Shown: positions 18,789 through 40,545 of the stretch, one piece after another
How the letters are laid out: each line of letters opens with the position of its first letter
How positions within the stretch are numbered: the first letter of the stretch is position 1
Source of the DNA: Candidatus Cloacimonadota bacterium
GTDB lineage: Bacteria > Cloacimonadota > Cloacimonadia > JGIOTU-2
Direction of reading: 5' to 3'
NCBI GenBank assembly: GCA_030613025.1
Contig: JAUWMT010000001.1
Location: 16,013 to 80,012, forward strand
Length of the DNA stretch: 64,000 bases
Notes under the pieces: generated by a model
What the model was told of the DNA's origin: nothing
Databases searched by the model: none
Seen by the model: only the letters and a program-made list of their open reading frames with translations
Program-made: the position numbers and the translations under genes

Positions 18789-19190
18789 ATGGGAACTCAA
18801 CAAATTCTGCTCATTGTTTTGAGCGTAATTATCGTAGGTATCGCTGTGGCTGTTGGTATTACAATGTTTAATGCCCAGTCAGTGAATTCAAACCGCAATG
18901 CATGTATTGCTGACATGAACAACTTCGCTGCCAGTGCTCTTGCATTTTACAAAACCCCCACAAGTCATGGTGGTGCAGGTTCAACAATAGGAAATGTTGT
19001 GGATTCTACAGTTTGCAACTATATTGGTGTAGGTTATACTGCCCCTAATCAACTCAGTACTGATAATGGTACATACACTATTACATTGGCTGGCACCGTC
19101 CTTACTTTTACAGCTGCTGGAACTGAATCAGGTGTAACCCCTGTAACTACTGTTGATTTTAGTTCTAGTGCCATTGCAACTACACCATAA
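18789..19190 (+). CDS. Small pilin-like protein with an N-terminal hydrophobic helix. It is a putative major subunit of the downstream type IV filament system and has no canonical prepilin leader.
   Basis: The 133-aa protein starts MGTQQILLIVLSVIIVGIAVAVGITMF and continues into a Gly/Thr-rich, probably beta-stranded, C-terminus that contains 2 Cys. A strong ribosome-binding site AGGAGG precedes it. It is followed by an intrinsic terminator and sits directly upstream of pilC- and pilB-like genes. Confidence 0.5.
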   Translation: MGTQQILLIVLSVIIVGIAVAVGITMFNAQSVNSNRNACIADMNNFAASALAFYKTPTSHGGAGSTIGNVVDSTVCNYIGVGYTAPNQLSTDNGTYTITLAGTVLTFTAAGTESGVTPVTTVDFSSSAIATTP

Positions 19191-23725: not shown

Positions 23726-25594
23726 GTGCCCATGGGCAAAGCAGTTTTGATAATGATAATACTCCTTGCCGTGATCGTCGTTGTGGCGACTGTAACTGTT
23801 TCAGTTGAAAGAAAGGCTGATGTTATTCCAGAAAAGCTCGCAGAGAATGAAGTACGATCCGACCTGATAAATCTTGGAGCTTATGCTCTCAAGTGGGGTA
23901 TTAAACAAGTCCGCAATGAAAATATCACCGAATCAAATTCATCCATTTTTGATGATGAAAGTAGTTCTTATCATTATGCATTTTTTGATGTTCCTGCTCT
24001 TGACGGAAGTATCGATATGATCACCTATGAATTTGGCGATACTCTGACTGTCGAAGGAGGTGGTGGTGAAGGAGAGGAAGAAGAAGAGGAGGAAGAAGGC
24101 GTTACAATACCATCTCTTGATATGGTTTTTGCAAATGGAGCAATTACTCTTACCGGCAGCGCGAGTATCAATGGAACAACAGGAACTAACTCCACTGTTG
24201 ATAACAGTGTTAATTTTGCATGGAGCACACAGGTTGATGGTGATTTTTATGTAGGACCCGGCGCTGATTATACAAGTGTGATCAACTCTGCTGGGTGGGG
24301 ACGTGTACCAGAGGATAACATTACGGGTACAATTTCTAATCTACCTGCAACGAGAACTTATCCTCTTCCCACTTATCCTAATTTCCCGGAACTAACCGAT
24401 CAAGGTTCTTTCAGTACACCATGGACTCCTTCAGGAGAATATCTTATTGATGATGACGGATATTATTCTTCAATAAGTGCCACAAGCAGCAGAACGATCA
24501 CGATCGATGTGGGATCCGGTACCAGAAGAATAGTTGTCGGAAGTCTTAGTGTTGGGCAAGGATATATTGAACTTCTGGGAACCGGCGATCTTATATTTTA
24601 TGTTGAAAATTCATTTTCCCTTACAGGAAGCAGTATTATCAATACCGGCGGTGATGCAAGCAAGGTTCATATGTACTACTCGGGTGCAACAGACCTGAAT
24701 TTCGCCGGTGCGACCGCATATAATGGTTCTATTTATATTGAAACTGCCAATATTCACATAGGTGGTTCGGGCGGTATTACTGGTCATATTATTTGTGGCG
24801 GCTCAACGGTTGACGTCACTGGTGCAGCAAATGCCTATGTGAGAGCACTGTATGCCCCAAACGCAGCAGCATCAATTACCGGCTCCGGAAGTATTAGCGG
24901 AATCCTTGTAGCAAACACCATTTCTGTTTCTGGCAGTGGAAATATAACTGCTGATAACAGCTGGGCAGATCCGGTACCCGACATCGAAGATGATGAAGAT
25001 GAAGAAGCTTCAGAAGTTGCTGGATTTTATACAGTCCAGCTTGACATCACGGCACTTGTAAGTGAAGATGAATATGGAAATGAAACGGATCATACAAGCT
25101 TCGCAACTGTTCTCTTCAGCTATTCCGGCGGTGAATCAGAAGAGGAAGAAGAAACTCCAGCCCTTTCAATGGAAGCAGATCTTCATATAAATCCCACAAA
25201 CAATTCTTCTAAACGTTTTCAGATGCAAACGCCAAGTGGGCAGATAGATAGAGGAACGCTCCTTTCGGGCGGTTCATCATATACATACTCTGGTTCTGCA
25301 ACAGAAATTAGACTACAACCAAAATCAGACGGAAGAACTATTACTGTAAATGGAAGCGACATAACCCTCGCCACAAGTACCGCTTATACAATAACCTCAG
25401 ACAGCATGACCGTAAATCTTAGAAACTCTCACGGACCTGGAAATGCAATGGGTCATTGGTGGATTGAAATAACCTGCACCGACCCGACAGTTTCACCAGA
25501 TCCGGGGCTTCCTGAACCTGAAGAGGAAGAACCGGAAGAAGAAATTGGAGAAATAACCTTAGAGGACATCGAAATCCTCTACTGGCAACCGTAA
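23726..25594 (+). CDS. Large pilin-like or tip-associated protein with poly-Glu tracts and Gly/Ser/Thr-rich beta-helix-like repeats
   Basis: The 622-aa protein has an N-terminal transmembrane helix MPMGKAVLIMIILLAVIVVVATV. It contains acidic runs (GGGGEGEEEEEEEEG, DIEDDEDEEASE, ESEEEEET, PEPEEEEPEEE) and a repetitive region (ITGSGSISGILVANTISVSGSGNITAD). A strong ribosome-binding site AGGGGGTG precedes it. Confidence 0.5.
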   Translation: MPMGKAVLIMIILLAVIVVVATVTVSVERKADVIPEKLAENEVRSDLINLGAYALKWGIKQVRNENITESNSSIFDDESSSYHYAFFDVPALDGSIDMITYEFGDTLTVEGGGGEGEEEEEEEEGVTIPSLDMVFANGAITLTGSASINGTTGTNSTVDNSVNFAWSTQVDGDFYVGPGADYTSVINSAGWGRVPEDNITGTISNLPATRTYPLPTYPNFPELTDQGSFSTPWTPSGEYLIDDDGYYSSISATSSRTITIDVGSGTRRIVVGSLSVGQGYIELLGTGDLIFYVENSFSLTGSSIINTGGDASKVHMYYSGATDLNFAGATAYNGSIYIETANIHIGGSGGITGHIICGGSTVDVTGAANAYVRALYAPNAAASITGSGSISGILVANTISVSGSGNITADNSWADPVPDIEDDEDEEASEVAGFYTVQLDITALVSEDEYGNETDHTSFATVLFSYSGGESEEEEETPALSMEADLHINPTNNSSKRFQMQTPSGQIDRGTLLSGGSSYTYSGSATEIRLQPKSDGRTITVNGSDITLATSTAYTITSDSMTVNLRNSHGPGNAMGHWWIEITCTDPTVSPDPGLPEPEEEEPEEEIGEITLEDIEILYWQP

Positions 25595-27432: not shown

Positions 27433-28284
27433 ATGCAAAAACACATTTTAATCATCGATGACGAGGAAAGCATCAGAGAGCTGTGTAAAGAATTTTTGGA
27501 AGAAGACGGCTATAAGGTCACTCTTGCTGTTGACGGTCAAGATGGTCTTGATAAAATGAACTATGATGACTTTGATCTCTACATGATTGATATGGTCATG
27601 CCCCGCCTGGATGGGCTGGAAACCATGAAGCGTATCAAGAAGAAGCAACCCCTTGCCGTGATCATCATCACTACAGGATTTTCCAGTATCGAAGGTGCGG
27701 TAAAAGCAGTTCATGCTGGTGCGTTTCAGTATCTTTCCAAACCCATCAATGCAGAAGAACTTCTCGAAGCAGTAAAAAAGGGGGTGCAATATGGAGAAGA
27801 TCTATACGGTCCTCTTCAAAAAGCCTTTGAACCCGGAACTGAAGGCACAAAAAATGAGCCGGCTATGCTGCATGGATTCACCAAAGAAGAGAAGGTTGAT
27901 TTTTTGGCAATTGGAAGGGCACGCAAATTTGAAGCCGGTCAAACTATTGCTCTTGATAACGAAAACTCTGATTCAATCGTGCTTGTAGAATCCGGTGAAG
28001 TATCCATCTGGCTAAGTAATAACACCGTTGACTATCTCCGAAAGAATGATTCCTGGGCAGAAGAAAACTTCATACTGGCAAATTCCGAATTCACTACTCT
28101 TCGATCCGAAACAGCATGTATGATACGTTTTTTCGAAAGAAAGAAGCTTCTTGACTTCTTCGCCTACAAGGGCGAGCGTCTGATGAAACGGTTCATGATC
28201 AACCTCATTAATTGTCTCTTTTCAAAATGGAGAAAATCCATTCAACGTATTGTCATGCTCAAGCTCGTAACCGGAGAAAAATAA
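27433..28284 (+). CDS. Response-regulator receiver domain fused to a cyclic-nucleotide-binding-like (cNMP/Crp-type) domain
   Basis: The receiver domain has ILIIDDEES, the acceptor aspartate in LYMIDMVMP, and YLSKPI. The C-terminal ~120 aa (FLAIGRARKFEAGQTIALDNENSDSIVLVESGEVSIW...) resemble a cNMP-binding beta-barrel. Confidence 0.6.
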   Translation: MQKHILIIDDEESIRELCKEFLEEDGYKVTLAVDGQDGLDKMNYDDFDLYMIDMVMPRLDGLETMKRIKKKQPLAVIIITTGFSSIEGAVKAVHAGAFQYLSKPINAEELLEAVKKGVQYGEDLYGPLQKAFEPGTEGTKNEPAMLHGFTKEEKVDFLAIGRARKFEAGQTIALDNENSDSIVLVESGEVSIWLSNNTVDYLRKNDSWAEENFILANSEFTTLRSETACMIRFFERKKLLDFFAYKGERLMKRFMINLINCLFSKWRKSIQRIVMLKLVTGEK

Positions 28285-28358: not shown

Positions 28359-29573
28359 ATGGGTTTATCATTTACACCGGAATTGCTTGTTGGTTTACCC
28401 GAATACTTAACTGGAACAAACCGTTTCCAGAACATTAATAAAATCATAACCTACAATGCTGCGTGGCGTGAAGAAGCATACGAACATCTTCGTAAACTTC
28501 TCAAGTACATGCGGGAAATAGATGCTTCTGACCTTGATATTGGCGGTCCCGGCTCAAACAATAATGTGTGGTACAGAATTTACGGAACTAAATCGCCCAA
28601 CAAGGAGATGCCTCATTATAATAACGATGAGGTAACAGCGATCCTTCTCAGCGTGCTTTCCGATGACCAGAAAGTGCTTCTTTTTAAAGATAAAAACGTT
28701 GACCTTTCTGTCGGTATGGTTCTTGAAGAAGGAGAACGATCGAGCAGGTTCCGTAGCGATATCTATTATGAAAGCAATGTACTTGTAGGAAACTTCCGTA
28801 GGATCAATCAAAATCTCTTTAAAATTGAATCTCTTGGATTTCCACTACCGATCATGCAAAGAATGGATCTGCAATATGAAAAATCCGGGCTCATCCTCAT
28901 TACCGGTATTACCGGTTCGGGAAAGAGCAGCACTTTGGATTCTATTATAGACATGAACAATCATAATAATGATGCACATATTATAATTCTTGGCGCACCC
29001 ATTGAGTATGTTCATAAGTCTGATAGGTGTATTCTTCGTCACAGGGAGGTCGGTGAAGATGTGCTTTCCTTTAAGAATGGTGTTGTTCAAGCTTTACGGC
29101 AAGATCCCGACATTATAATTGTCGGCGAGATGAGAGAGCCGGACACCATCGCCAGAGTGCTGGAAGCAACAGACAGTGGACATAAAGCATTTTCAACTCT
29201 GCATACAAGCTCTGCTATTGATAGTATTCATAGAATTGTAGGTGAATTCCCGACAAGAGAACAGGAGCGAATTCGTCTTCGCCTTGCTGATACGCTCTCT
29301 GTCATTATTTCTCAAAAATTGGTCCCAAATATACAAGGCAAACGAAGTCTCGCAAAAGAAATTCTTTCTGTGACACCTTCTGTAAAAGCAGCAATCCGAA
29401 ATCAGAATATTAATGAGATATATCAGATGATCACTGAAGGAAAAAAATACGGCATGATAACACTCGAACAGGATCTTTTCAATCTGCATAAGAAAGGTGA
29501 AATCTCAAAAGAGGTTGCTATGAACTACTCTAATAATAGAAAAAGAATGCAGCAGCTTCTAACTTACTCATAA
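28359..29573 (+). CDS. pilT: Type IV pilus retraction ATPase (PilT/PilU family)
   Basis: Contains the Walker A motif LILITGITGSGKSSTL, the Asp box GEMRE, and the His box AFSTLHTSSA. The protein is 404 aa with an N-terminal extension of about 60 aa and no tetracysteine motif. Confidence 0.85.
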   Translation: MGLSFTPELLVGLPEYLTGTNRFQNINKIITYNAAWREEAYEHLRKLLKYMREIDASDLDIGGPGSNNNVWYRIYGTKSPNKEMPHYNNDEVTAILLSVLSDDQKVLLFKDKNVDLSVGMVLEEGERSSRFRSDIYYESNVLVGNFRRINQNLFKIESLGFPLPIMQRMDLQYEKSGLILITGITGSGKSSTLDSIIDMNNHNNDAHIIILGAPIEYVHKSDRCILRHREVGEDVLSFKNGVVQALRQDPDIIIVGEMREPDTIARVLEATDSGHKAFSTLHTSSAIDSIHRIVGEFPTREQERIRLRLADTLSVIISQKLVPNIQGKRSLAKEILSVTPSVKAAIRNQNINEIYQMITEGKKYGMITLEQDLFNLHKKGEISKEVAMNYSNNRKRMQQLLTYS

Positions 29574-29580
29574 TTATATA

Positions 29581-32421
29581 ATGAAAATAAGCAAAAAAGA
29601 AAAAACTGCACTTGGCATATTTCAAGATGGAATGACTATCAAGGTCGCCCAGCTTACGCTCGTCAACGGTAAGGTAAATCTCGCCGAGCTTACGGAAACG
29701 ACTCTCTCCCTTCCGCTTTTCCCTCATGATGAAACGCTTGTTGAGCCACAGGCAACTACTCCAACAGAACCTGAAGAAGCTGCTCCGATCCCTGACCTTG
29801 CAGACTTTGATGAAGATTTCAAGATACCCGATCTTGCAGAACTTGAAGAATCTGAGATCGAGCCAATAGCAGGAGCTGAACCTGTCATGACAAGTAGGCA
29901 GGAATTTCACAATCTTATCTCACAATTTCCTCTTGACTCATGCAAGATATCAATGAATGCTCCTGAAGAAAACATTTCATTCACACAGTTTGATGAAACT
30001 TTTGCCAGATCTCGCTCCCTCTCAAAAATAAAAAAACAATTACGTGATGAGATTCTTACAAAAGAAGATCTAAAAAACAAGAATTTTACTTTTGATTTTA
30101 TTAGAAACAAGGATAACTCGCTTCTTGCTTTTGTGGAAAGAGGAAAAAACGATATTATTCATGCGTTGCAGGATATAAATCCGCTTATTTCCAAAAAGAG
30201 ATTTTTCTACAGCTATGTTGAGCCAACTGAAATTTCTCTTATGAATCTTGTTCGCAATAATTACAATTTCTCTGATGAAGACTATGTTTTGATAATCTTT
30301 ATTGGCGTCGACACTAAATTCGGCATTGTGATGAAGGGAAATGATTTCGTGAAGAGCTTCCCCCTAATAGTACCGGATACTGACATCGAGCACATGCGAC
30401 AGGTTATATACTCCAAGATAATGCTTGAGCAGGATACTTCTAACGTGAATATCACAAGTAATATACTTTTTACAGGAGAAATGGCAAAAGATGACGATGT
30501 TGAGTATTTCCGCAGCAGGATCAATTCCGGTGCTAATATTTCCAGAATTACCCTTGATAAGCTCCATATTCCTCAGGCAAAAGAACAAGCTTTCACGCCT
30601 GAAAGAATCGCCGATTACTGTATTCCAATAGCACTTGCATGGAAATCTTTGGAAGGACGAAATAAAAACTTTTATCCCTGCAACCTTTTATCATCCCAAA
30701 TAATTGAAAGCCAGAAACCCTTCAAAATAGCGTGGCACGGCTTTATTATCATGACTGCGATATTTTATATTGCCTTTTCTGCTACTTTTAAAAATCTAAA
30801 CATCAGTAAAGAAATCATAGATGTAAATCGTAACAACAGCCAGGTTGAGCTCGAATTAAGACAAAACCGCACAATTGTAACAAAATTGCAGCAGGTTCAA
30901 AATGAGATCGAAGCACTACAAGTAAATCTCCAAAAAGTTGGTGGCTTAGTTGGTAATAAAAATCAATGGTACTATATATTGAATGTCATCTCAAATTCTT
31001 TTAAAGAGCATAAGGTCAGCTGGCTTAATACTCTGAACGGTCTGGATAATACCTTTAAGATAAGCGGCTTCACAACAAGAAAGCGAAACGTTATCCCATT
31101 CTCGAATCTCTTTCCCAATGGAATGATTGCGAAGATAACAGAAAACACAATACAAAATGTGAGCGTCTGGCAATATGACATTACATTCGGATATCCTGAT
31201 CCTCTTGAAATTGCAAAGCAGAAAAAAGAAGGTGAGCCGGGTATTGAATTCATCAAAGACAAAGAACAACTAAAATCGCCACGTGTTCAAATAGATAAGA
31301 TCAAACCTGCCAAAGAGAAGCAAGAAAAGCCGGCGATAAAAACTCAGGCAATTTCAAATAATGATAGAATTCGTTATCAACAAATCACCGATCTCTACTT
31401 TTCCGAGCAATATCAGCAAGCATATGATAAATTTAAACAGTTCCTTATTGAATTTCCAGATAGCAAATATACAAACAGTGCAAGTTACCTGATGGGTGAA
31501 TGTCTTTATCAAATGGATGATATCGATCAGGCAATTCTTGTTTTTAATAAGATCCTCGAGCAGAAAGGTCTGAAAACTCCTGATGCCCTTATGATGCTCG
31601 GTAATGCCTATGCCAAAAATCAAAATATTCCTCAGGCAAAGATCTATTGGAATAGAATTATCGCTGAATATCCTAATAATAGATTAGCACCCATTGCAAA
31701 AAATAAGATTAAATATCATACTCAAATTGCTCCTCAAACTCAAGAAAATAATACCGAGATGCTTTACGAACTCCAACTCTATGCTGACAGCAACTATGAT
31801 ACTGTTCTCAACGAACAAAATAAACTAAAGGTTTTAGGATATAACACTAAATTAATGCCTATGTCCACGAGTAACGGAATTATCTACATACTACGTATTG
31901 ATGACCTGTTCTCTCGAGACGACGCTCTTGCTCTTGGTGAAAAGATAAGTACTCAGCATAATGCATATCATGATTTCTTGATCACCGAGGCAATGCGCGC
32001 GCAAGAACCTGTTGATAAAAGCGTAGAAATCCCAAATATAAACGATAAGAAAAAGATCCAAAAAGAATACTCGGTTATACTTGATAAATATTTTTCAAAT
32101 GATTATCAGGGCGCCTATAACGGCTTCTATTCATTCACTAAGAAATACCCCGATAGTGAGCTTACTGCAAATGCTCAGTATTTCTTGGGAGAAACACAGT
32201 ATCAGATGGATAATATCCCTGAAGCAATTACTATTTTTGAATTTGTTGTTGAGCAGAATTCAGTCAAAACTCCTGATGCCTTGATGATGCTTGGCAATTC
32301 TCATGCCCAGCTCAAGGAAATTGATAAAGCTCTTTATTATTGGAATGAGTTGATGTCACGTTATCCAAAACATCGGCTTTCGGATATTGCTCAGCTCAAA
32401 GCAATTGAGATAAAGGATTGA
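29581..32421 (+). CDS. A 946-aa fusion. A PilM-like cytoplasmic domain is joined through a transmembrane helix to a PilN-like coiled coil and periplasmic domain, then to a TPR (YbgF/CpoB-like) module, a SPOR domain, and a second TPR module.
   Basis: The N-terminus ALGIFQDGMTIKVAQLTLVNGKVNLAEL resembles PilM and carries an acidic PDLA[DE]-repeat insertion. The transmembrane helix is IAWHGFIIMTAIFYIAFSATF, followed by a coiled coil. Two internally duplicated YbgF-like TPR blocks are present (KTPDALMMLGNAYAKNQ...EYPNNRLAPIA and KTPDALMMLGNSHAQLK...RYPKHRLSDIA). They flank a SPOR-like block, LYELQLYADSNYDTVLNEQNKLKVLGYNTKLMP. Confidence 0.6.
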   Translation: MKISKKEKTALGIFQDGMTIKVAQLTLVNGKVNLAELTETTLSLPLFPHDETLVEPQATTPTEPEEAAPIPDLADFDEDFKIPDLAELEESEIEPIAGAEPVMTSRQEFHNLISQFPLDSCKISMNAPEENISFTQFDETFARSRSLSKIKKQLRDEILTKEDLKNKNFTFDFIRNKDNSLLAFVERGKNDIIHALQDINPLISKKRFFYSYVEPTEISLMNLVRNNYNFSDEDYVLIIFIGVDTKFGIVMKGNDFVKSFPLIVPDTDIEHMRQVIYSKIMLEQDTSNVNITSNILFTGEMAKDDDVEYFRSRINSGANISRITLDKLHIPQAKEQAFTPERIADYCIPIALAWKSLEGRNKNFYPCNLLSSQIIESQKPFKIAWHGFIIMTAIFYIAFSATFKNLNISKEIIDVNRNNSQVELELRQNRTIVTKLQQVQNEIEALQVNLQKVGGLVGNKNQWYYILNVISNSFKEHKVSWLNTLNGLDNTFKISGFTTRKRNVIPFSNLFPNGMIAKITENTIQNVSVWQYDITFGYPDPLEIAKQKKEGEPGIEFIKDKEQLKSPRVQIDKIKPAKEKQEKPAIKTQAISNNDRIRYQQITDLYFSEQYQQAYDKFKQFLIEFPDSKYTNSASYLMGECLYQMDDIDQAILVFNKILEQKGLKTPDALMMLGNAYAKNQNIPQAKIYWNRIIAEYPNNRLAPIAKNKIKYHTQIAPQTQENNTEMLYELQLYADSNYDTVLNEQNKLKVLGYNTKLMPMSTSNGIIYILRIDDLFSRDDALALGEKISTQHNAYHDFLITEAMRAQEPVDKSVEIPNINDKKKIQKEYSVILDKYFSNDYQGAYNGFYSFTKKYPDSELTANAQYFLGETQYQMDNIPEAITIFEFVVEQNSVKTPDALMMLGNSHAQLKEIDKALYYWNELMSRYPKHRLSDIAQLKAIEIKD

Positions 32422-32425
32422 TGCC

Positions 32426-33301
32426 ATGCCTTATGCAATAAGAAACTCTATTGTTCTTGGTTTACTGCTTATCCTCGTATTTGTGGGAGGGCTGCTTTCA
32501 AATTCTCAATCTGTAAAGCGGCTTGAAAAGTACAAAACGGCATTGGTGAAAAACCAGAAAACACTCGCCCAGCTCAATAAAACTTATCCCGATCTTTGTA
32601 AAACGGACGAGATCATTGCATCATTAGATGACATGAAAAAAAAGGCACTTGAAGATTATAAAATAATTCTCAAAAATGACAATCCCAGCCAAACATATCA
32701 ATACCTCATTGACATAACCGAAACCTTTACTCCAGACTTTAATTTTGACTTTAAGGTCGCCCAGGTGGGCAAAAAGGGTGATCTTTCCTATAATTCATAT
32801 ACTTTGAATGGTTCGGGAAATGTTGAGTCGCTGCATTTCTTTATTTATCAGGTTGAATATCAGGCACCACTTTATATTATCGAATCCGTAAGAATTTCAG
32901 AAACATCAGTTGCTCTTAAAGATACAGTCGATTTTTCCATGAAGCTGATTGTATATTATGACCAACAAACCGGCACCTCAATTTCAGAAATTCCTTTCAG
33001 AAGTTTCAGTTACTCAAACCTGGTTTATAATCCCTTCTGCTCACAGATCCATGCACCGATAGATCGATCTGAGGAAGAAAAGTATATCAACATAAATACC
33101 GCTCTTATAATTGGTCTAACCCCGGATAAGATTTTCCTTCGGGACATTAATGGTATGATCGTAACCCTTGTCCCGGGTTCGAGAGTGGCATATGGATATC
33201 TTAACTATATTAACTGGAAACAGCAATGTGCTGTATTTAATATTAATCGAATTGGTATTACACAGGAAATCAAAATATATTTACAAGGAAATGAATTATG
33301 A
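32426..33301 (+). CDS. PilO/PilN-like bitopic inner-membrane protein
   Basis: The 291-aa protein has the N-terminal transmembrane helix SIVLGLLLILVFVGGLL followed by a coiled coil. It lies between the PilM/N-like gene and the secretin. Confidence 0.45.
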   Translation: MPYAIRNSIVLGLLLILVFVGGLLSNSQSVKRLEKYKTALVKNQKTLAQLNKTYPDLCKTDEIIASLDDMKKKALEDYKIILKNDNPSQTYQYLIDITETFTPDFNFDFKVAQVGKKGDLSYNSYTLNGSGNVESLHFFIYQVEYQAPLYIIESVRISETSVALKDTVDFSMKLIVYYDQQTGTSISEIPFRSFSYSNLVYNPFCSQIHAPIDRSEEEKYININTALIIGLTPDKIFLRDINGMIVTLVPGSRVAYGYLNYINWKQQCAVFNINRIGITQEIKIYLQGNEL

Positions 33302-34494
33302 AAAAAATAATTCTATTACTTTTAATTTCATCACTTTTCGCAGGTTCTTTATCCGCACAGTGGATCTATGAAGATTTTTCATATCAGGAACTGGTTTCCA
33401 TGACCCGCGACACACCTTTCCCGGAAGCGGTAAGGGCGCTCGAGATAATGTCCGCTCAGTTTGAAGGCAAAAAGATCATTAACATGAGTACTTTCCCCGG
33501 AGAGATCGGCGTTCCAATTAAAGAAGTGTACTGGAAGAATGCACTCTTTCTTATCATTAATTTCAATGATCTTGTGCTCGAAGACCTTCCCGGTTCATAT
33601 CTTATTACCGATGCGGCTGAAGCTATCGAAGAAGAATTAGAAAAGGATGCCGAGATAACGCCGGATACCAAACAAGTTAAAATAACTTCAATCTTTTTTA
33701 AAGCAGACAGGTCTGTACTGAAAAGCGTTGGTATTGACTGGTCCACTCTTATCAATGGCAAGGTCATTGCATCTATTAACTTCAAAGGTAGTGGTGTTGG
33801 ACAGGAGATTTTCAATGCTACTGCTGCCACAAAGTTAGAGTCTGGAGATATCTCAATTGATATTAATACACTCTTCAGCATTCTGGAATCTCATCAGAAA
33901 GGTGCTATTATTGCACGTCCATCCATTGTTGTTGTTTCCGGTAAAACAGGTCAGATCCAGGTTGGTCAGGATTTCTCTGTGAAAAAGAAAGATGATGCTG
34001 GTAATGTAACTGATGAATTCTTCCAGACTGGTGTCATCATGACAGTAACTCCTACGGTTGTCGAAAATGAAGATTTTGAAGCAATTCATCTTGAAGTAAG
34101 CGTACAAAAAAGTTCTGCTACTCCCGGCGAGCTTAGCACTATCATTAATAAAAGCGAATCTATTACAGAAGTTTTGCTTTATGACGGTGAAGAAACTGTT
34201 ATGGGTGGTTTATATGATACGGATGAAACGGTTACCCGCATTGGTATTCCCATTCTCAAGGATCTTCCATGGTGGGTTTTGGGCATACGCTACCTGACGG
34301 GCTCAAACAGGCATGAAACCAATGTTCGAGAAATGATTGTCATCATAAAAGCTGAAATTTCTAAACCTATCAACGAGCGAAAGAAAGAAGCACTTTCCAC
34401 ACAGCAGCAAATTGAAGAACATCGTCTTAAGAACCAGAATGCTAAAGACCTTTTTAAAAATGATGAGGAAGACAATGATACAAAGAATAAATAG
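33298..34494 (+). CDS. pilQ: Short secretin (GspD/PilQ family C-terminal domain)
   Basis: A signal peptide MKKIILLLLISSLFAGSLSAQ is followed by the secretin signature RIGIPILKDLPWWVLGIRYLTGSNRHETNVREMIVIIKAEI. The protein is only 398 aa. Confidence 0.75.
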   Translation: MKKIILLLLISSLFAGSLSAQWIYEDFSYQELVSMTRDTPFPEAVRALEIMSAQFEGKKIINMSTFPGEIGVPIKEVYWKNALFLIINFNDLVLEDLPGSYLITDAAEAIEEELEKDAEITPDTKQVKITSIFFKADRSVLKSVGIDWSTLINGKVIASINFKGSGVGQEIFNATAATKLESGDISIDINTLFSILESHQKGAIIARPSIVVVSGKTGQIQVGQDFSVKKKDDAGNVTDEFFQTGVIMTVTPTVVENEDFEAIHLEVSVQKSSATPGELSTIINKSESITEVLLYDGEETVMGGLYDTDETVTRIGIPILKDLPWWVLGIRYLTGSNRHETNVREMIVIIKAEISKPINERKKEALSTQQQIEEHRLKNQNAKDLFKNDEEDNDTKNK

Positions 34495-36304
34495 ATACGG
34501 TTTCCTTCTCTTACTTCTCTGCTGTGCAGGATTATTCTTTTTCCTTGTGAGCTGTGATCTTAAGCTCACAGATCCTGATCTTACCAATGCTCCCTCAAAC
34601 CTCAAATTAAAAAAATTGGATGACGGCAGAATCGAGATAACATGGACCTATCATATCCCAGATCATGCTGATTCTGATACGCTTTATTTTGTTATAGGCA
34701 AGAAGGTTGGTACTGGTAATTGGAATGATAATTATCAGTATATTTCAACACTGTACAATGCGTATCCTGATAACATACCTACTAATGACAGTCTTGTGTA
34801 TGCGTATAAGATAAAATTTTATAATAAAACATCCGACGAATCCTCCCCTTATTCTGAAGTAATTGCTTTCATGTCCCATCATTGTGATCCCAGCGACCTT
34901 ATTATCGAACAGAAAACCCAGACACAGGTTGAGGTAAGCTGGCAAGACCATTGCGTTGGCGAAGAGGGATATTATATCGATAAGAAAATCGGGACCGGTA
35001 GCTGGACAAGCAAATACAGAACTCTCAGTGCAAACGCAACATCTTTCACGGATGATGTAAATCTGTTTGAAGAAGTGTATTACCGAGTCAAAGCATTTGT
35101 GGGCACCACTACATCTAATTCAATAGAGCACTCAATTGTACCGACATTTTTAGCTCCTTCAAATCTCGCATTGCAGAAACTCGATCAAAATAAGATCAAG
35201 CTGACATGGCAGGATAACAGTGAAGGTGAGATCGGCTTCCATATCGATAAAAAGATCGGCAGCACCGACTGGGTCACCAGTTATGCTACTGTAGATAGCA
35301 ACACGGTTTCTTTTATTGATAACATCACAGAGCCCTGCGGAACGTTTTATTATAGAGTGAAAGCTTATTCCAGCACTTATACCTCTGCAAATAGTAATGA
35401 AGCACAGATAAATATTCGTCTCGATCTAATCGGTTCTGTCAATACGCCAGGGGTTGCTCAAGATATTATTACTTCCGGCTGGTACGCTTATGTTCCGGAT
35501 AATTATAATGGATTACAGGTCATATATTTTGGAAATCCCGAAAACCCGAATATCGTGCATACAATGTATGACTTTGAAGATCGAGTGCTCTCTGCCGATA
35601 TTGAAGACGATTTTATGTATGTAACCAGTCATAGCGGCAGCACTACTCCGGGAGTTATCACCTCTGTTGATATTACAAATCCACCTAATCCTCAAATATC
35701 AGGCAGCAGCTTGACATCAGGAATTCCCTATGATATCGAAGTGGTTGGAGATTTTGCCTATATTGCAGATGGGGATAATGGACTTACTATTTTCTTTATA
35801 TCAAATTCCACTCCCGATTTTGTAACAAACATAGCCACGGGCGGTCATGCACAGAGTATTTGTGTTGACGGCACAAATGCTTATGTTGCTCAGGGTTTGA
35901 ACGGAATTGCAATTTTTGATATTTCAGATCCCTACAATCCTACCTTAAGTACCACATACGCAACCACCGGTGCCAAAGATATTTTTGTTCAAAATAACTA
36001 TGCCTATATTGCAAACAGCGAGGATGGGCTTCTTGTTCTCGATGTCTCAAATCCTGTTTCTCCAATATTTGTTGCAGAGGTAGATACAGACGGTTTTGTA
36101 AACGGTGTTCATGCAAATGACACTTATATTTATATGACGGATTCGGAAAACGGATTAATAGTTGTTGATAACTCTTTAATTATAAGTCCCTTTATTCTTG
36201 GAAACTATGAAATGACTACAGAACCTTCTTCGTTAACCCTTGCCGGCAGTTATGCACTGCTGATCGATAACGAGGGCATGAAGATTGTTCAGGTAATCCC
36301 TTAA
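34475..36304 (+). CDS. Lipoprotein with three fibronectin type III-like repeats and a C-terminal LVIVD-repeat beta-propeller
   Basis: A lipobox FFFLVSC is present. Three repeats each have a W-anchored Fn3 pattern (IEITWTY, VEVSWQDH, IKLTWQDN). Repeated YAYVA-GLNGIAIFDISDPYNP, LLVLDVSNPVSP and GLIVVDNS motifs identify the LVIVD repeats. The start was moved from 34412 to the Met at 34475 so that the signal peptide is at the N-terminus. The gene still overlaps the secretin gene by 20 nt. Confidence 0.6.
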   Translation: MIQRINRYGFLLLLLCCAGLFFFLVSCDLKLTDPDLTNAPSNLKLKKLDDGRIEITWTYHIPDHADSDTLYFVIGKKVGTGNWNDNYQYISTLYNAYPDNIPTNDSLVYAYKIKFYNKTSDESSPYSEVIAFMSHHCDPSDLIIEQKTQTQVEVSWQDHCVGEEGYYIDKKIGTGSWTSKYRTLSANATSFTDDVNLFEEVYYRVKAFVGTTTSNSIEHSIVPTFLAPSNLALQKLDQNKIKLTWQDNSEGEIGFHIDKKIGSTDWVTSYATVDSNTVSFIDNITEPCGTFYYRVKAYSSTYTSANSNEAQINIRLDLIGSVNTPGVAQDIITSGWYAYVPDNYNGLQVIYFGNPENPNIVHTMYDFEDRVLSADIEDDFMYVTSHSGSTTPGVITSVDITNPPNPQISGSSLTSGIPYDIEVVGDFAYIADGDNGLTIFFISNSTPDFVTNIATGGHAQSICVDGTNAYVAQGLNGIAIFDISDPYNPTLSTTYATTGAKDIFVQNNYAYIANSEDGLLVLDVSNPVSPIFVAEVDTDGFVNGVHANDTYIYMTDSENGLIVVDNSLIISPFILGNYEMTTEPSSLTLAGSYALLIDNEGMKIVQVIP

Positions 36305-36340
36305 TTAAATGTTTAAAAAATATTCATGCAGGAGGATGCA

Positions 36341-39300
36341 ATGAAAAAAATAATATTTCTCATTAGTATGACCTTACTATTTACGTCTTTGCTTACAGCT
36401 CAAACACATATTCCGGCAGGTAATGTGAACGGCACATGGAATGTGGCTGGAAGTCCATACATCATCGATGGAGAGATCCAGATCATCTCCGGAGATCAGC
36501 TTACAATCGATCCCGGTGTAGCTGTTGAATTCTCAGGACATTACAAGTTCATTATCTACGGAAGATTGCTCGCAGAAGGTATAACCGGAAATACAATTAC
36601 CTTCTCAACTCAAACCCCCTTCACAGAATGGCATGGATTACGCTTCATTGACACGAACACAAATGGTCAGGACGGTTCAAAAATTGTGTATTGTGAAATC
36701 GAAGATGGAAAAGCAACTGGAACTTCTCCAGATTATAGGGGTGGTGGAATATATTGCCTTAATTCATCCGATATCCTCATTCAGAATTCAACGTTATCCA
36801 ATAATTCTGCTATCAGCAATGGTGGAGCGATTTACCTTTCAGAATCTGATGTGGTCTTGGATAATGTGATAATTACAGACAATACCGCAAGCGGAGCTGG
36901 TGGTGGGATTTATCTTTATGATTCTGATCCGGTTCTTAATGAAGTGATCATTTCTAATAATAGTGCTACTTATGATGGTGGTGGTATCAATTGCTACAAT
37001 TCTAATCCTACTTTCACATGGTCCCAGATCTATGGCAATACAACGCAATGGAATGGTGCCGGAATTTCATGTTACAATAATTCTGCTCCAATAATTCAAA
37101 ATTCCACATTTAGCAATAACCTTGCCTTTCAAAATGGCTCAGCTATTGCTGTTCTCTATAATTCTGATGTTACATTGCTGAATTGTATTATTTGGAATAA
37201 TGCAAGTAACGGCATCTACGTTGAAACAGCGAGCTCGATTATAGCAACCTACTCGGACATTATGAACGGCACTGGGCAAACCTACTTTGGAGAAGGATGT
37301 ATTGATGAAGATCCTCTCTTTGCTGATCCTGCAAATGAAGACTTCCAGATAACCTGGGCTAATTTCCCTACTCAGGACTCAACAAAATCCCCATGCATAA
37401 ACTCCGGCGATCCAGCTTCTCCTCCCGATCCGGATGGCACACGAGCTGATATGGGTGCACTGACATTCCTTCAATCTGGTATAAGTGGAATAATTACACT
37501 TCAAGGAGGAACTGGGAATGTACAGTATGTCGAAGTGAGTGCAGGTGGCGTTTCTGTTAACCCGGATGCTGCTGGAGAGTATCTTATTACTCTTGCACCC
37601 GGCACTTATACTGTTACTGCTACATTAGAAGGATATACGGCAGATCCTGTCACGGGTGTTATAGTTAATCCGGGACAGGTTACTACCGGTACCGATATAA
37701 CTCTAAATGAAATTTTACCCGGCGAGATTGTTGGTCAAGTTGATCTTGAAGGACTTGGAAATGTTCCTGAAGTCCAGATTACCGCTGGTGGAGAGAGTAC
37801 AAATCCGTATCCTGTTTATGATCCCTATTCTGGCATTTTGCTTTACTATGAATACATTCTCGAGCTACCTCAGGGTACTTATGATGTCACTGCAACAAAA
37901 GCAGGATATCAGGATTCCACAATCACTGATGTGGTGGTTGTTTCGGGACAGCAGACAACCGGTATAAATTTCCTCCTTCTACTCATAAAATATGATGGTT
38001 GGATCTCGGGGACAATTACACTTAAAGATGGTGCAGGTGATGTTACAAATGTTGAAGTAACTTCAGATACTGCTTCAGTTAATCCTGATGCTACTGGATA
38101 TTATGAGATACTTCTTGAAAATGGAACTTACGATGTGACAGCATCACTGGATGATTACACAACAGTTACTATCGAAAATGTAGAAGTAATTGCGAATGAT
38201 ACTACAATGGTAGATATCACACTTTTAAACTGGGAAGTTATTCCAGGAACCCAATATACAATGATGGCTTATGTTACTACTTCATTAGATGGTAAATATC
38301 TTACAAACACTGGAAGCAATCAATTCGCTGCCTTTGGTTCCGGAGGAACTTCTGATTGCCGTGGAATTGCAACCTGGAATGAGGGAAATTATAATTGTCC
38401 CCCATACTTTGGATGGGATGGTTATTATGACCTTGATGGATACTGGTATATAACCATTGTGAGTAATAATGACTCCGGAACAGATACTCTCAGCTTCAAG
38501 ATGTATGACACTGATACTGACAGTATTTATGATTGTTATGAAACGATTATCTTTGAAGATTGCACGGTCACACATTTCGATGTCATAGCACAGAATGAGG
38601 TAGATCAAGATTTTTCTCTTATTGCTGAGTGGAACTGGATTTCTTTTAATGCTCATCCTGAAGACACTTCTATCAACTCTGTTCTTGCACCCCTTGGAAG
38701 CAATGGCTTACAGATAAAGAATCAAACCCAATCAGCAAACTATATCGATCCTCCAGGAACGTGGGTAGGTACACTTACTAGTATTACTGATGGAGAAGGA
38801 TATCTTCTTAATATGTTGAATCCGGTTGATCCTTTTACTGTGACAGGATATCGAATAAATCCAGAAACACATCCGATACCATTGTATTATGCACCTGTGA
38901 ACTCGTACAACTGGAATTGGGTCGGGTATTATCCAACTGTAGAGCTCACGCTGTACGAAGCACTCGCGAGTCTAGGCAGTAATGTTAAGGCAATAAAGAC
39001 ACAGTCAAAATCTGCAGTGTATTATAACAGTACTTGGATTGGAGACCTTCTTACTATGCAACCCTGTGTGAGTTATAAGATCAACATGGGTTCGGCAGGC
39101 ACGCTTACATATCCAATTGCCGAATCTTCAAAAGATAATCCTCTCATTACTACAATCAGCAATCCAATTGGCTGGGAAGTCTTAACCGGTTGTGATAAGA
39201 ATATGATCGCAATAATCAATCTTATCAACATTGAGAATCCTTCTTCGATCTCGATTGGCGTCTTTGATGACAATGGAATTTGCCACTCAATAGGATCCTA

Positions 39301-39766
39301 TCAAAACGAGGTGTGGTATTTCACAATTGTAGGAACTGAATCTCAAGTCCTTCATTTCGAAGCAGTTGATAATGTATCTGGAAAATATCTCACATCTTAT
39401 CAGTCAATTAGCTTCGAAAATGACATTATACTTGGACACATGGCAGAGCCGCTTGAAATAAGTTTAGAAACGACTGCACACTCAAACCATGTTATTGAAC
39501 TTTATAGAAATCATCCGAATCCAGTCTATCTTTCAACATCGATACACTATTACATTCCAGAATCCTCTCATGTAGAACTTACTATTTACAATATTCTTGG
39601 TCAAAAGGTTAAGACGCTTATTTCTACCAAACAGGATGCAGGAGAATATGCGTTAACATGGAATGGCTTAGATGAGAACGGTAATCGTCTTTCAAGTGGA
39701 ATTTACTTCTATAAACTCACTGCAAATGCATCTTCCGTAGTTAAAAAGATGCTAATAATAAAATAA
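36341..39766 (+). CDS. Large secreted protein with parallel beta-helix repeats, three CarbopepD_reg-like domains and a T9SS C-terminal sorting domain
   Basis: The signal peptide is MKKIIFLISMTLLFTSLLTAQ. PbH1 repeats are present (NNSAISNGGAIYLSESD..., TDNTASGAGGGIYLYDSD...). CarbopepD_reg-like units are present (AGEYLITLAPGTYTVTATLEGY). The C-terminus ELTIYNILGQKVKTL...SGIYFYKL is a T9SS CTD. The start was set at the ATG that is 5 nt after a GGAGGA ribosome-binding site. Confidence 0.8.
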   Translation: MKKIIFLISMTLLFTSLLTAQTHIPAGNVNGTWNVAGSPYIIDGEIQIISGDQLTIDPGVAVEFSGHYKFIIYGRLLAEGITGNTITFSTQTPFTEWHGLRFIDTNTNGQDGSKIVYCEIEDGKATGTSPDYRGGGIYCLNSSDILIQNSTLSNNSAISNGGAIYLSESDVVLDNVIITDNTASGAGGGIYLYDSDPVLNEVIISNNSATYDGGGINCYNSNPTFTWSQIYGNTTQWNGAGISCYNNSAPIIQNSTFSNNLAFQNGSAIAVLYNSDVTLLNCIIWNNASNGIYVETASSIIATYSDIMNGTGQTYFGEGCIDEDPLFADPANEDFQITWANFPTQDSTKSPCINSGDPASPPDPDGTRADMGALTFLQSGISGIITLQGGTGNVQYVEVSAGGVSVNPDAAGEYLITLAPGTYTVTATLEGYTADPVTGVIVNPGQVTTGTDITLNEILPGEIVGQVDLEGLGNVPEVQITAGGESTNPYPVYDPYSGILLYYEYILELPQGTYDVTATKAGYQDSTITDVVVVSGQQTTGINFLLLLIKYDGWISGTITLKDGAGDVTNVEVTSDTASVNPDATGYYEILLENGTYDVTASLDDYTTVTIENVEVIANDTTMVDITLLNWEVIPGTQYTMMAYVTTSLDGKYLTNTGSNQFAAFGSGGTSDCRGIATWNEGNYNCPPYFGWDGYYDLDGYWYITIVSNNDSGTDTLSFKMYDTDTDSIYDCYETIIFEDCTVTHFDVIAQNEVDQDFSLIAEWNWISFNAHPEDTSINSVLAPLGSNGLQIKNQTQSANYIDPPGTWVGTLTSITDGEGYLLNMLNPVDPFTVTGYRINPETHPIPLYYAPVNSYNWNWVGYYPTVELTLYEALASLGSNVKAIKTQSKSAVYYNSTWIGDLLTMQPCVSYKINMGSAGTLTYPIAESSKDNPLITTISNPIGWEVLTGCDKNMIAIINLINIENPSSISIGVFDDNGICHSIGSYQNEVWYFTIVGTESQVLHFEAVDNVSGKYLTSYQSISFENDIILGHMAEPLEISLETTAHSNHVIELYRNHPNPVYLSTSIHYYIPESSHVELTIYNILGQKVKTLISTKQDAGEYALTWNGLDENGNRLSSGIYFYKLTANASSVVKKMLIIK

Positions 39767-39776
39767 ATAATACTTT

Positions 39777-39810
39777 GGGAAGGGAGCTAATGCTTCCTTC
39801 CCTCTTTTAT
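39777..39810 (+). terminator. Rho-independent terminator
   Basis: A stem GGGAAGGGA / TCCCTTCC(C) is followed by TCTTTTA, immediately after the stop of the 1141-aa gene. Confidence 0.6.
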
Positions 39811-39828
39811 AGAAATACAGGGACAACC

Positions 39829-40545
39829 ATGAAGAGAAAAAGCTTTATTTTACTATCAATTTTTGTTCTCTCGGTAACGACTCTTTTTTCTTCACCACCT
39901 GACTGGGAGCCAATTCAGGGCACTCAATATTCCATGGTTTTATTTGGAGAGATCTACCTCTATAGTGTAACATTTACCGGAACAGATAGTAGTAATATTG
40001 CTGCGGCTTTTGGTCCTGGCGGAGAATTGGATTGTCGATCTATTGGAGCATGGCAACCTGACAATCCCCCATATTGGGATGGATACTGGTATTTCACAAT
40101 AGTTGGTAACGATAATGGCGATCCAATTTCTTTTAAAATCTATAATTCGAATAACGACTCGGTTTATAATTGTAATGAAACAATAAACTTTGAAGATGGT
40201 ACAACAACTGGCAATCCTGTAAATCCTTATAATCTTACGGTGGGACAAATAAGTGTTAACTATCTTATTAGCGGGACATTAGGGGTTTCAACATACCCCA
40301 ATCCTTTCAGCCACACCATTACTTTTGACCTCTCTCAAATGCAAGAGCACTTATTGAATTTATCAATTTATGATATTAAGGGACGTCTTATTAGAAAATT
40401 TACTAATAACGACTTCAATGACTTATCTATTTTGAATTGGACAGGATTCGATTCAAAAGGTAAATCAATTTCACCCGGGATATATTTTTATAAAATAGAA
40501 ACGTCTAAAATTAATTCATTGGGAAAAATAATATATCTCCAATAA
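39829..40545 (+). CDS. Secreted protein with a T9SS C-terminal sorting domain. Its N-terminal domain is paralogous to an internal domain of the upstream large protein.
   Basis: The signal peptide is MKRKSFILLSIFVLSVTTLFS. The block QGTQYSMV...AAFGPGGELDCRSIGAW...YWDGYWYFTIVGNDNGDPISFKIYNSNNDSVYNCNETINFED aligns with the block GTQYTMMA...AAFGSGGTSDCRGIATW...YWYITIVSNNDSGTDTLSFKMYDTDTDSIYDCYETIIFED in the upstream protein. The CTD reads LSIYDIKGRLIRKF...GIYFYKI. Confidence 0.7.
   Translation: MKRKSFILLSIFVLSVTTLFSSPPDWEPIQGTQYSMVLFGEIYLYSVTFTGTDSSNIAAAFGPGGELDCRSIGAWQPDNPPYWDGYWYFTIVGNDNGDPISFKIYNSNNDSVYNCNETINFEDGTTTGNPVNPYNLTVGQISVNYLISGTLGVSTYPNPFSHTITFDLSQMQEHLLNLSIYDIKGRLIRKFTNNDFNDLSILNWTGFDSKGKSISPGIYFYKIETSKINSLGKIIYLQ

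Follow-up and report, generated by a model that had tools for sequence, protein, structure and literature searches.

A PilM-PilN-like type IV pilus protein with a TPR-SPOR-TPR tail in Cloacimonadota

The 64,000-nucleotide stretch analyzed here (hereafter the window), from a Candidatus Cloacimonadota bacterium (contig JAUWMT010000001.1, positions 16,013 to 80,012), carries a type IV pilus gene cluster that includes a pilMN-type gene encoding a protein of 946 amino acids (aa). The protein combines a PilM-like cytoplasmic domain, a transmembrane helix and a PilN-like periplasmic part with a long tail, in which two tetratricopeptide repeat (TPR) blocks of the YbgF/CpoB type flank a SPOR domain (Table 1). 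A preliminary description, made from the sequence alone, had read the locus as a single polypeptide of this composition. The open reading frame (ORF) confirms it: none of the 946 codons is a stop, the frame is unbroken, and the conserved N-terminus MK..K.EK.A.GIFQDG supports the ATG start. Hydropathy likewise agrees with the one transmembrane helix of that description, since it reveals a single hydrophobic segment at aa ~381-404.

Table 1. Features of the pilMN-type gene and its immediate neighbors, with positions in the window (pLDDT, predicted local distance difference test)
Feature	Positions	Strand	Basis or remark
PilT-family retraction ATPase	28359..29573	+	TIGR01420 315.7 bits and T2SSE; 8-nt gap upstream of pilMN gene
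pilMN-type gene with TPR-SPOR-TPR tail	29581..32421	+	ATG start, 946 codons, no interruption
PilM-like actin-fold (ASKHA) domain, cytoplasmic, aa 1-375	29581..30705	+	fold match
Acidic disordered insert, aa 50-100, with IPDLAD and IPDLAE	29728..29880	+	motifs, charge, pLDDT
Single transmembrane helix, aa 381-404	30721..30792	+	hydropathy, model helix, invariant alignment columns
PilN-like coiled-coil helix, periplasmic, aa 405-456	30793..30948	+	model, weak profile matches
Ferredoxin-like domain (PilN/PilO/GspL type), periplasmic, aa 463-540	30967..31200	+	DSSP, Pfam PilN in relatives
Lys/Glu-rich linker, aa 541-589	31201..31347	+	composition, low pLDDT
TPR block 1, YbgF/CpoB type, aa 590-711	31348..31713	+	Pfam, TIGR02795, PDB profile matches
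SPOR domain, aa 727-803 (~77 aa)	31759..31989	+	fold; Pfam in orthologues
TPR block 2, YbgF/CpoB type, aa 820-946	32038..32418	+	paralogue of block 1; TIGR02795
291-aa bitopic partner protein, candidate PilO/PilP equivalent	32426..33301	+	conserved position
Short secretin, 398 aa	33298..34494	+	Pfam Secretin 6.5e-28; TIGR02515 PilQ 83.9 bits

Similar fusions occur well beyond this genome. Full-length orthologues of 925-965 aa, with the order TPR-SPOR-TPR and 38-89% identity, are present in more than 20 independent metagenome or metagenome-assembled genome assemblies, and relatives carry further variants of the tail. A gene of 950-954 aa lies at the equivalent position in five GTDB species-representative genomes. 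Because the same architecture recurs in so many independent assemblies, conserved as a whole, an assembly merge of separate genes is ruled out as the origin of the ORF.

The cytoplasmic domain is recognizable by its fold. In an AlphaFold2 model of aa 1-560, for which 33 homologues were used, the mean pLDDT is 80 and disorder is confined to the acidic insert (pLDDT <50 at aa 50-100) and the termini. A Foldseek comparison of the model with the PDB puts PilM of P. aeruginosa, M. xanthus and T. thermophilus in all ten top places (probability 1.00, E 3e-12 to 1e-9, TM-score 0.56-0.65 normalized to the target), with FtsA next and cytoplasmic GspL/EpsL further down (E 3e-5). Pfam PilM_2 matches neither the whole protein at E<=1 nor aa 1-380 at E<=10, the NCBIfam PilM models do not match the 946-aa protein, and PDB sequences give no match at E<=10 to a profile of the domain built from 22 sequences. 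The PilM-type identity of aa 1-375 proposed in the preliminary description is therefore supported by fold and gene context, without a match in sequence.

Within this domain, the acidic repeat insert that had been pointed out earlier is real. The motifs PDLAD and PDLAE stand at aa 71 and 83, in a stretch (aa 46-105) with 18 D/E and 1 K/R, and the family alignment places a variable acidic segment at the equivalent position in all relatives. By eye, the presumptive ATP site shows GI(F/x)xDG and (Y/F)(V/I)G in place of the PilM motifs G(I/L)(D/E)IG and DIG; G12, G17, K21 and G299 are conserved across the family.

The PilN-like assignment is supported by topology, together with weak yet consistent sequence evidence. 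Hydropathy and the model agree on the bitopic layout of PilN: a transmembrane helix that continues into a coiled coil (one helix, aa 381-456), then a periplasmic domain in which an alpha-beta-beta unit occurs twice. Immediately before the transmembrane helix lies the most conserved motif of the family, PIALAWK..N...Q K.FKIAWHG. DSSP assigns helices at aa 463-475 and 501-508 and strands at aa 480-487, 491-498, 515-524 and 527-537; we take this alpha-beta-beta/alpha-beta-beta domain, aa 463-537, to be the periplasmic fold of PilN, PilO, GspL and GspM. The family profile weakly matches M. xanthus PilN (3jc8_Na, E 0.0056, profile positions 400-500), and the PilM-like family of Amuc_1101 weakly matches aa 376-501 (E 8.8e-4). 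Pfam PilN (PF05137) does not match the window protein itself and matches 12 of the 41 relatives scanned (best E 6.8e-4). None of the GspL-type Pfam or NCBIfam families is matched by the window protein. The core is joined to the tail by a linker (aa 541-589) with 12 K and 8 D/E, whose modeled confidence is low at aa 550-560.

The two TPR blocks are paralogues of each other, as had been suspected. Blocks 1 and 2 are 46% identical (BLASTP E 2e-38), and a YbgF-type assignment is strongly supported by profile searches. Many Pfam TPR families match the tail. TIGR02795 (tol_pal_ybgF) scores 160 bits summed over two stretches, against a cutoff of 90.1, with its best stretch at aa 827-938. The best PDB matches of the family profile are CpoB (6g5s, 2e-19) and YbgF (2xev, 7.6e-14), and the blocks also resemble outer-membrane assembly lipoproteins of the BamD/YfiO type. 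Within the TPR-SPOR-TPR clade, copies of block 1 average 59% identity and copies of block 2 average 57%, whereas block 1 and block 2 share 43%; the duplication is thus old, and both copies have been kept. Single-TPR forms leave the ancestral block ambiguous: block 2 is the nearer one for 51 of them and block 1 for 35. Classification of the protein as YbgF/CpoB was rejected, since the TPR domain alone matches while organization and context do not: the full-length CpoB model (NF008068) yields 64.9 bits against a cutoff of 383, and no Tol or Pal family is found among the scanned ORFs of the window.

The domain between the TPR blocks is supported as SPOR by its fold and by orthologues that pass the Pfam threshold. 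In an AlphaFold2 model of aa 699-835, it forms a beta-alpha-beta-beta-alpha-beta, RNP-like domain with a core pLDDT >90, closest to solved SPOR domains; DedD and RlpA SPOR are the top Foldseek matches. The conserved Gln of SPOR beta-1 (YELQLY) is present. Two orthologues exceed the Pfam SPOR cutoff of 21, one 77% identical to the window protein (P0006, 25.8 bits) and one more distant (P0060, 28.1 bits), and relatives from candidate division KSB1 reach 56 bits. The window copy itself falls below Pfam detection, with no match to PF05036 even at E<=10, and a 13-sequence profile of the region returns only chance matches among PDB sequences. The SPOR-like domain of the preliminary description is thereby supported.

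The gene is embedded in a type IV pilus cluster on the + strand. It holds a sensor kinase, a sigma-54 activator, a 133-aa pilin-like ORF, PilC and PilB; small ORFs bearing transmembrane segments and a protein with DUF7305; a fragment of a PilS-like kinase and a response regulator that has a cyclic-nucleotide-binding domain; and then PilT, the pilMN gene, the 291-aa protein and the secretin. Around the pilMN gene the intergenic distances are 8, 5 and -4 nt, the last being a 4-nt overlap of the secretin start with the gene upstream, which suggests one transcription and translation unit. No pilotin gene is recognizable among the ORFs scanned in the cluster. The remainder of the window is chromosomal housekeeping, including ATP synthase, MnmG, MnmE, DXS, YidC and PurD.

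The two genes downstream of pilMN complete the conserved block. The 291-aa protein has an N-terminal transmembrane segment, a coiled coil, an alpha/beta part and a beta-rich C-terminal part. Its orthologues give weak PilO or T2SSM_b matches in 3 of 32 cases, profiles of 4 and of 32 orthologues have no match in the PDB, and no Pfam, NCBIfam or PDB family is convincing for it. The protein is probably the PilO/PilP equivalent of the machine, its C-terminal part appearing PilP-like by eye only. This conserved partner argues against the earlier suggestion that the tail replaces a missing PilP, as it is the likelier counterpart of PilO and PilP. In the 398-aa secretin, the Secretin domain is the only one detectable: there are no N0, Secretin_N or AMIN matches, no other peptidoglycan-binding domain, and no further Pfam match at E<=5.

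Several neighbors of the block may also belong to the pilus. The small transmembrane-bearing ORFs, which have no family match, may encode minor pilins. The 133-aa ORF (18789-19190, +; MGTQQILLIVLSVIIVGIAVAVG), which comes after the sigma-54 activator and before PilC, has a hydrophobic N-terminus. By eye it lacks the canonical G/F-x-x-x-E leader of type IV prepilins, and it has no Pfam match; it may be an atypical major pilin of an FCB-type system. After the small ORFs comes the 622-aa DUF7305 protein (23726-25594, +), which has an N-terminal transmembrane segment and several poly-Glu tracts (EEEEEEEE) and may be a pilus-associated component, tip or adhesin-like. The response regulator with a cyclic-nucleotide-binding domain (27433-28284, +) lies directly upstream of PilT in most Cloacimonadota loci and is not present in those of Bacteroidota and Ignavibacteriota, which hints at lineage-specific cyclic-nucleotide control of retraction. 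On the other side of the block (window 34412-40545, +), an LVIVD-repeat protein follows the secretin in most of the closer Cloacimonadota loci (L001, L005-L027). Next come large beta-helix/CarboxypepD_reg proteins with C-terminal sorting domains of the type IX secretion system, in the window and in L001, the one related locus whose gene calls reach that far. Such an arrangement suggests that surface proteins are linked to the pilus operon in a conserved way.

The core of the protein is widespread, and its tail varies. A word-indexed search returns 73 homologues, and all those with an organism name are from Cloacimonadota. Scored with domain hidden Markov models (HMMs) built from the window protein, homologues comprise the core only (522-570 aa), the core with TPR (~700 aa, the commonest class), the core with SPOR and TPR (751-780 aa), the core with TPR, SPOR and TPR (925-965 aa, 25 clusters) and the core with TPR and TPR (854-856 aa). 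A core profile free of tail sequence, run exhaustively with HMMER, finds 1155 cluster representatives at E<=0.001, 343 of them at E<=1e-30; the 150 best-scoring of the 1155 are 246-1001 aa long, and the shortest of these are fragments. Of 41 extended members scanned that have no Cloacimonadota-type TPR, 23 carry a Pfam SPOR domain (best E 3.8e-15), in some cases in two copies, and 1 carries AMIN. SPOR, TPR and occasionally AMIN have thus been attached to the PilMN subunit repeatedly and independently in the FCB group.

SPOR-bearing relatives with an organism name belong to KSB1, where they are annotated as 'SPOR domain-containing protein'. One or two SPOR domains without a YbgF-type TPR are found in P0073 (L003:1634-4093), P0085, P0094, P0129 and other KSB1 and further relatives. 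A home-made SPOR HMM did not reach the KSB1 domains in five iterations, and Pfam was used for them.

A scan of GTDB species representatives, which yields 80 loci, places these architectures in a taxonomic frame. Cloacimonadota genes encode 686-954 aa and are tailed, the one Neomarinimicrobiota gene encodes 716 aa, and the genes of Bacteroidota (largely Chitinophagales) and Ignavibacteriota encode 515-550 aa, the core only. Wherever the locus is long enough, the order PilT, pilMN gene, ~290-300-aa protein and short secretin (369-452 aa) is kept. This four-gene block is common to 80+ loci in five phyla (Cloacimonadota, Bacteroidota, Ignavibacteriota, Neomarinimicrobiota and KSB1), and PilT adjoins the pilMN gene in all of them. 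In the FCB group, this machine thus normally has PilM and PilN fused, and the tail is a modular extra of particular lineages. The coupling of pilus and wall-binding modules, which the preliminary description called unusual, is so only in part: the fusion is standard in this group, and in Cloacimonadota and KSB1 a tail with TPR, SPOR or both is the rule. Near the tail-less operons of Bacteroidota and Ignavibacteriota, no separate YbgF-like TPR or SPOR gene was found among + strand ORFs scanned with narrow home-made HMMs, a weak negative.

The analysis shows how the domains fold and what they are, which operon holds the gene, and that the tail is conserved and modular. On these grounds the gene is best read as encoding the inner-membrane alignment or platform subunit of an FCB-group type IV pilus, with a tail that would anchor or position it at the cell wall. 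We give this reading a probability of about 0.6; what it says of function we infer throughout. The cytoplasmic domain would dock the PilB/PilT/PilC motor, as PilM and GspL do, and the PilN-like part would pair with the downstream ~290-aa bitopic protein. A flexible K/E-rich linker could let the tail reach the peptidoglycan layer, where SPOR would bind glycan strands, preferably the peptide-free ('denuded') ones at septa and poles. The TPR blocks would bind a protein partner, which might be the periplasmic domains of the secretin, the ~290-aa protein, or a division protein of the Tol or PBP type. As a net effect, the inner-membrane platform would be tethered or positioned under a secretin that has no wall-binding domain of its own.

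Several observations weigh against this reading. Tail-less orthologues in Bacteroidota and Ignavibacteriota have secretins that are equally short (369-452 aa), so the tail is no simple compensation for a missing secretin domain. The SPOR domain is also changed in the window and lost nearby. I770 (codon ATA, 31888-31890) stands where 20 of the 21 other aligned TPR-SPOR-TPR homologues have R, and L800 (codon TTG, 31978-31980) stands where W occurs in at least 90% of them. From our reading of the SPOR consensus, the near-invariant R is presumably the equivalent of FtsN R285, which is reportedly important for septal binding. Both codons are one G-to-T change away from the consensus codon (AGA and TGG), and the two substitutions, which probably explain the failed Pfam match, could be real changes under relaxed constraint or sequencing or assembly errors. 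The SPOR domain of this particular genome may be weakened. In the closest GTDB species representative (L005, Cloacimonadota isolate NIOZ-UU3; 92-95% DNA identity around the gene), an exact in-frame deletion of 270 nt, corresponding to window 31777-32046 (aa 733-822), removes SPOR and leaves a TPR-TPR product of 856 aa (L005:5597-8167). The protein clusters P0002 (8 members) and P0005 have the same SPOR-deleted form. Together with I770 and L800, this deletion suggests relaxed constraint on SPOR in the sub-lineage. Finally, the PilM-like domain does not match PilM in sequence. Judged by eye, the family alignment is also without the acidic residues that mark phosphate-1 and phosphate-2 in the actin fold, so the domain may not bind ATP as PilM does.

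These points bear on the earlier proposal that the tail stands in for a long PilQ N-domain or localizes the machine. It is plausible, given a short secretin without AMIN, and is weakened by the equally short secretins of tail-less relatives and by the loss of SPOR in a close relative. For the same reasons the tail is better regarded as an accessory refinement than as an essential replacement part, and it appears dispensable.

The origin of the tail modules invites a different, though unlikely, explanation, in which TPRs and SPOR form a CpoB/Tol-like device that pre-installs pilus platforms at the septum, the site of the future poles. The inner-membrane platform would lead and the secretin would follow, and force-bearing anchoring would not be the main role. 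Both types of tail module come from families whose characterized members act at the division site, and type IV pilus components of P. aeruginosa are recruited to future division sites via a peptidoglycan-binding domain (PMC5285504). The likeness to CpoB is, however, confined to the TPR part, as the score of the full-length CpoB model indicates, and no tol-pal genes appear among the scanned ORFs of the window. Most members, moreover, have TPR without SPOR or SPOR without TPR, so the two modules need not act together. An 'inside-out' order of assembly in Cloacimonadota and KSB1 may be imagined along similar lines, and we regard it as equally doubtful: PilMN would read the wall via SPOR and the division machinery via its CpoB-like TPRs, nucleate the machine at the septum, and have the minimal secretin recruited later, the inverse of the order in Pseudomonas and Myxococcus.

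It is improbable that the tail is a built-in secretin assembly factor, with TPRs acting like PilF/PilW/Tgl or TadD and SPOR holding this chaperone at the wall. On this view the TPRs would bind monomeric secretin and assist its passage through the wall and its assembly. Such a role would suit a cluster with a minimal secretin and no recognizable pilotin among the scanned ORFs, as well as the resemblance of the TPR blocks to BamD/YfiO-type lipoproteins, and GspB/OutB offers a precedent for an inner-membrane-anchored secretin scaffold that also binds peptidoglycan (PMC9239104). Known pilotins, however, are lipoproteins of the outer membrane, whereas the present tail is fixed to the inner one; lineages without a tail also assemble a secretin of this kind, and the closest relatives of the TPRs are YbgF/CpoB, not PilF/PilW. 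That the ORF is a merge of pilMN, ybgF-like and SPOR genes, or its tail functionless baggage being lost, is very hard to credit: the precise SPOR deletion in a near relative and the two altered near-invariant residues might hint at decay, but the frame is intact, the 925-965-aa architecture persists in more than 20 assemblies even where identity falls to 38%, both TPR blocks are well conserved there, and the identities within blocks (59% and 57%) and between them (43%) indicate that an old TPR duplication has been kept under selection.

If the preferred reading of a wall-anchored or wall-positioned platform subunit holds, wall anchoring and positioning, known from secretin AMIN domains and LysM accessories, can sit on the inner-membrane alignment subunit instead. 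The variation of the tail also offers a natural deletion series for its function, with no tail, TPR, SPOR and TPR, TPR-SPOR-TPR, and a recent clean deletion of SPOR, in uncultured lineages. In public records, the orthologues with a source name appear as 'tol-pal system protein YbgF', 'TolA-binding protein', 'tetratricopeptide repeat protein', 'SPOR domain-containing protein', 'FtsB' or 'hypothetical'; a single one is labeled PilN. As the proteins are named after their tails, the PilM-PilN core of the FCB-type operon has largely been missed in these records, which bears on how pili are scored in genomes of Cloacimonadota, KSB1, Ignavibacteriota and Chitinophagales.

Full-text literature searches with pilus terms turned up no account of PilMN proteins that bear SPOR modules or TPRs of the YbgF type. 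The variant is real, conserved and so far unremarked; it combines a fusion of the PilM-PilN/GspL type with wall-binding modules and is not a new kind of system. Its closest counterparts are PilM and PilN of the type IVa pilus (5EOU/5EOX, 3JC8, 2YCH), which it resembles in the PilM-like fold, the PilN-like bitopic part and a location near PilT, PilB, PilC and a secretin. PilM and PilN are two proteins, whereas the window protein is one chain without detectable sequence similarity to PilM, has nucleotide-binding motifs that look degenerate by eye, and adds the 50-residue acidic disordered insert and a periplasmic TPR-SPOR-TPR tail of ~400 aa.

Fusion into one chain has precedents. A PilM-PilN fusion is known in Clostridioides difficile (PMC6916266), and both it and GspL share with the window protein a single chain with an actin-like domain, one transmembrane segment and a periplasmic ferredoxin-like domain. 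The window protein differs from GspL in that Pfam GspL does not match it and PilM structures score far better; the presence of PilT and the PilM-first fold matches point to a pilus system. In the literature searchable here, no TPR or SPOR modules are reported for GspL or the C. difficile fusion. From outside Proteobacteria, Amuc_1101 of Akkermansia is likewise a long, PilM-like, membrane-spanning pilus protein, yet the window protein scores 18 bits against that family's cutoff of 650 and is not a member.

YbgF/CpoB is the nearest counterpart of the TPR blocks, and the window protein passes its TPR-domain model when both blocks are summed. YbgF/CpoB (~260 aa) is a stand-alone periplasmic protein with a signal peptide, a trimerizing coiled coil and one TPR domain. 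The window protein, in contrast, has no N-terminal trimerizing coiled coil, carries its TPRs at the C-terminus of a 946-aa membrane protein, and is not encoded in a tol-pal operon.

Wall binding, too, is a recurrent property of envelope-spanning machines. In Pseudomonas and Myxococcus, the pilus machine is tethered to or positioned at the wall by the AMIN domains of PilQ, by TsaP and by FimV. In P. aeruginosa, PilMNOP depends for its recruitment to future division sites on the AMIN domains of PilQ, which bind peptidoglycan, and AMIN, SPOR and LysM have all been described as readers of denuded glycan (PMC5285504). A SPOR-like domain is present on LspD, the secretin of the Legionella type II secretion system, and GspB/OutB attaches the secretin both to the inner membrane and to peptidoglycan (PMC9239104). 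Like PilQ AMIN, TsaP/FimV LysM, the SPOR-like domain of LspD and the GspB/OutB extension, the SPOR domain of the window protein places a wall-binding module in such a machine. In those systems the module sits on the secretin or on a separate accessory protein, whereas here it sits on the inner-membrane PilMN subunit, between two TPR blocks.

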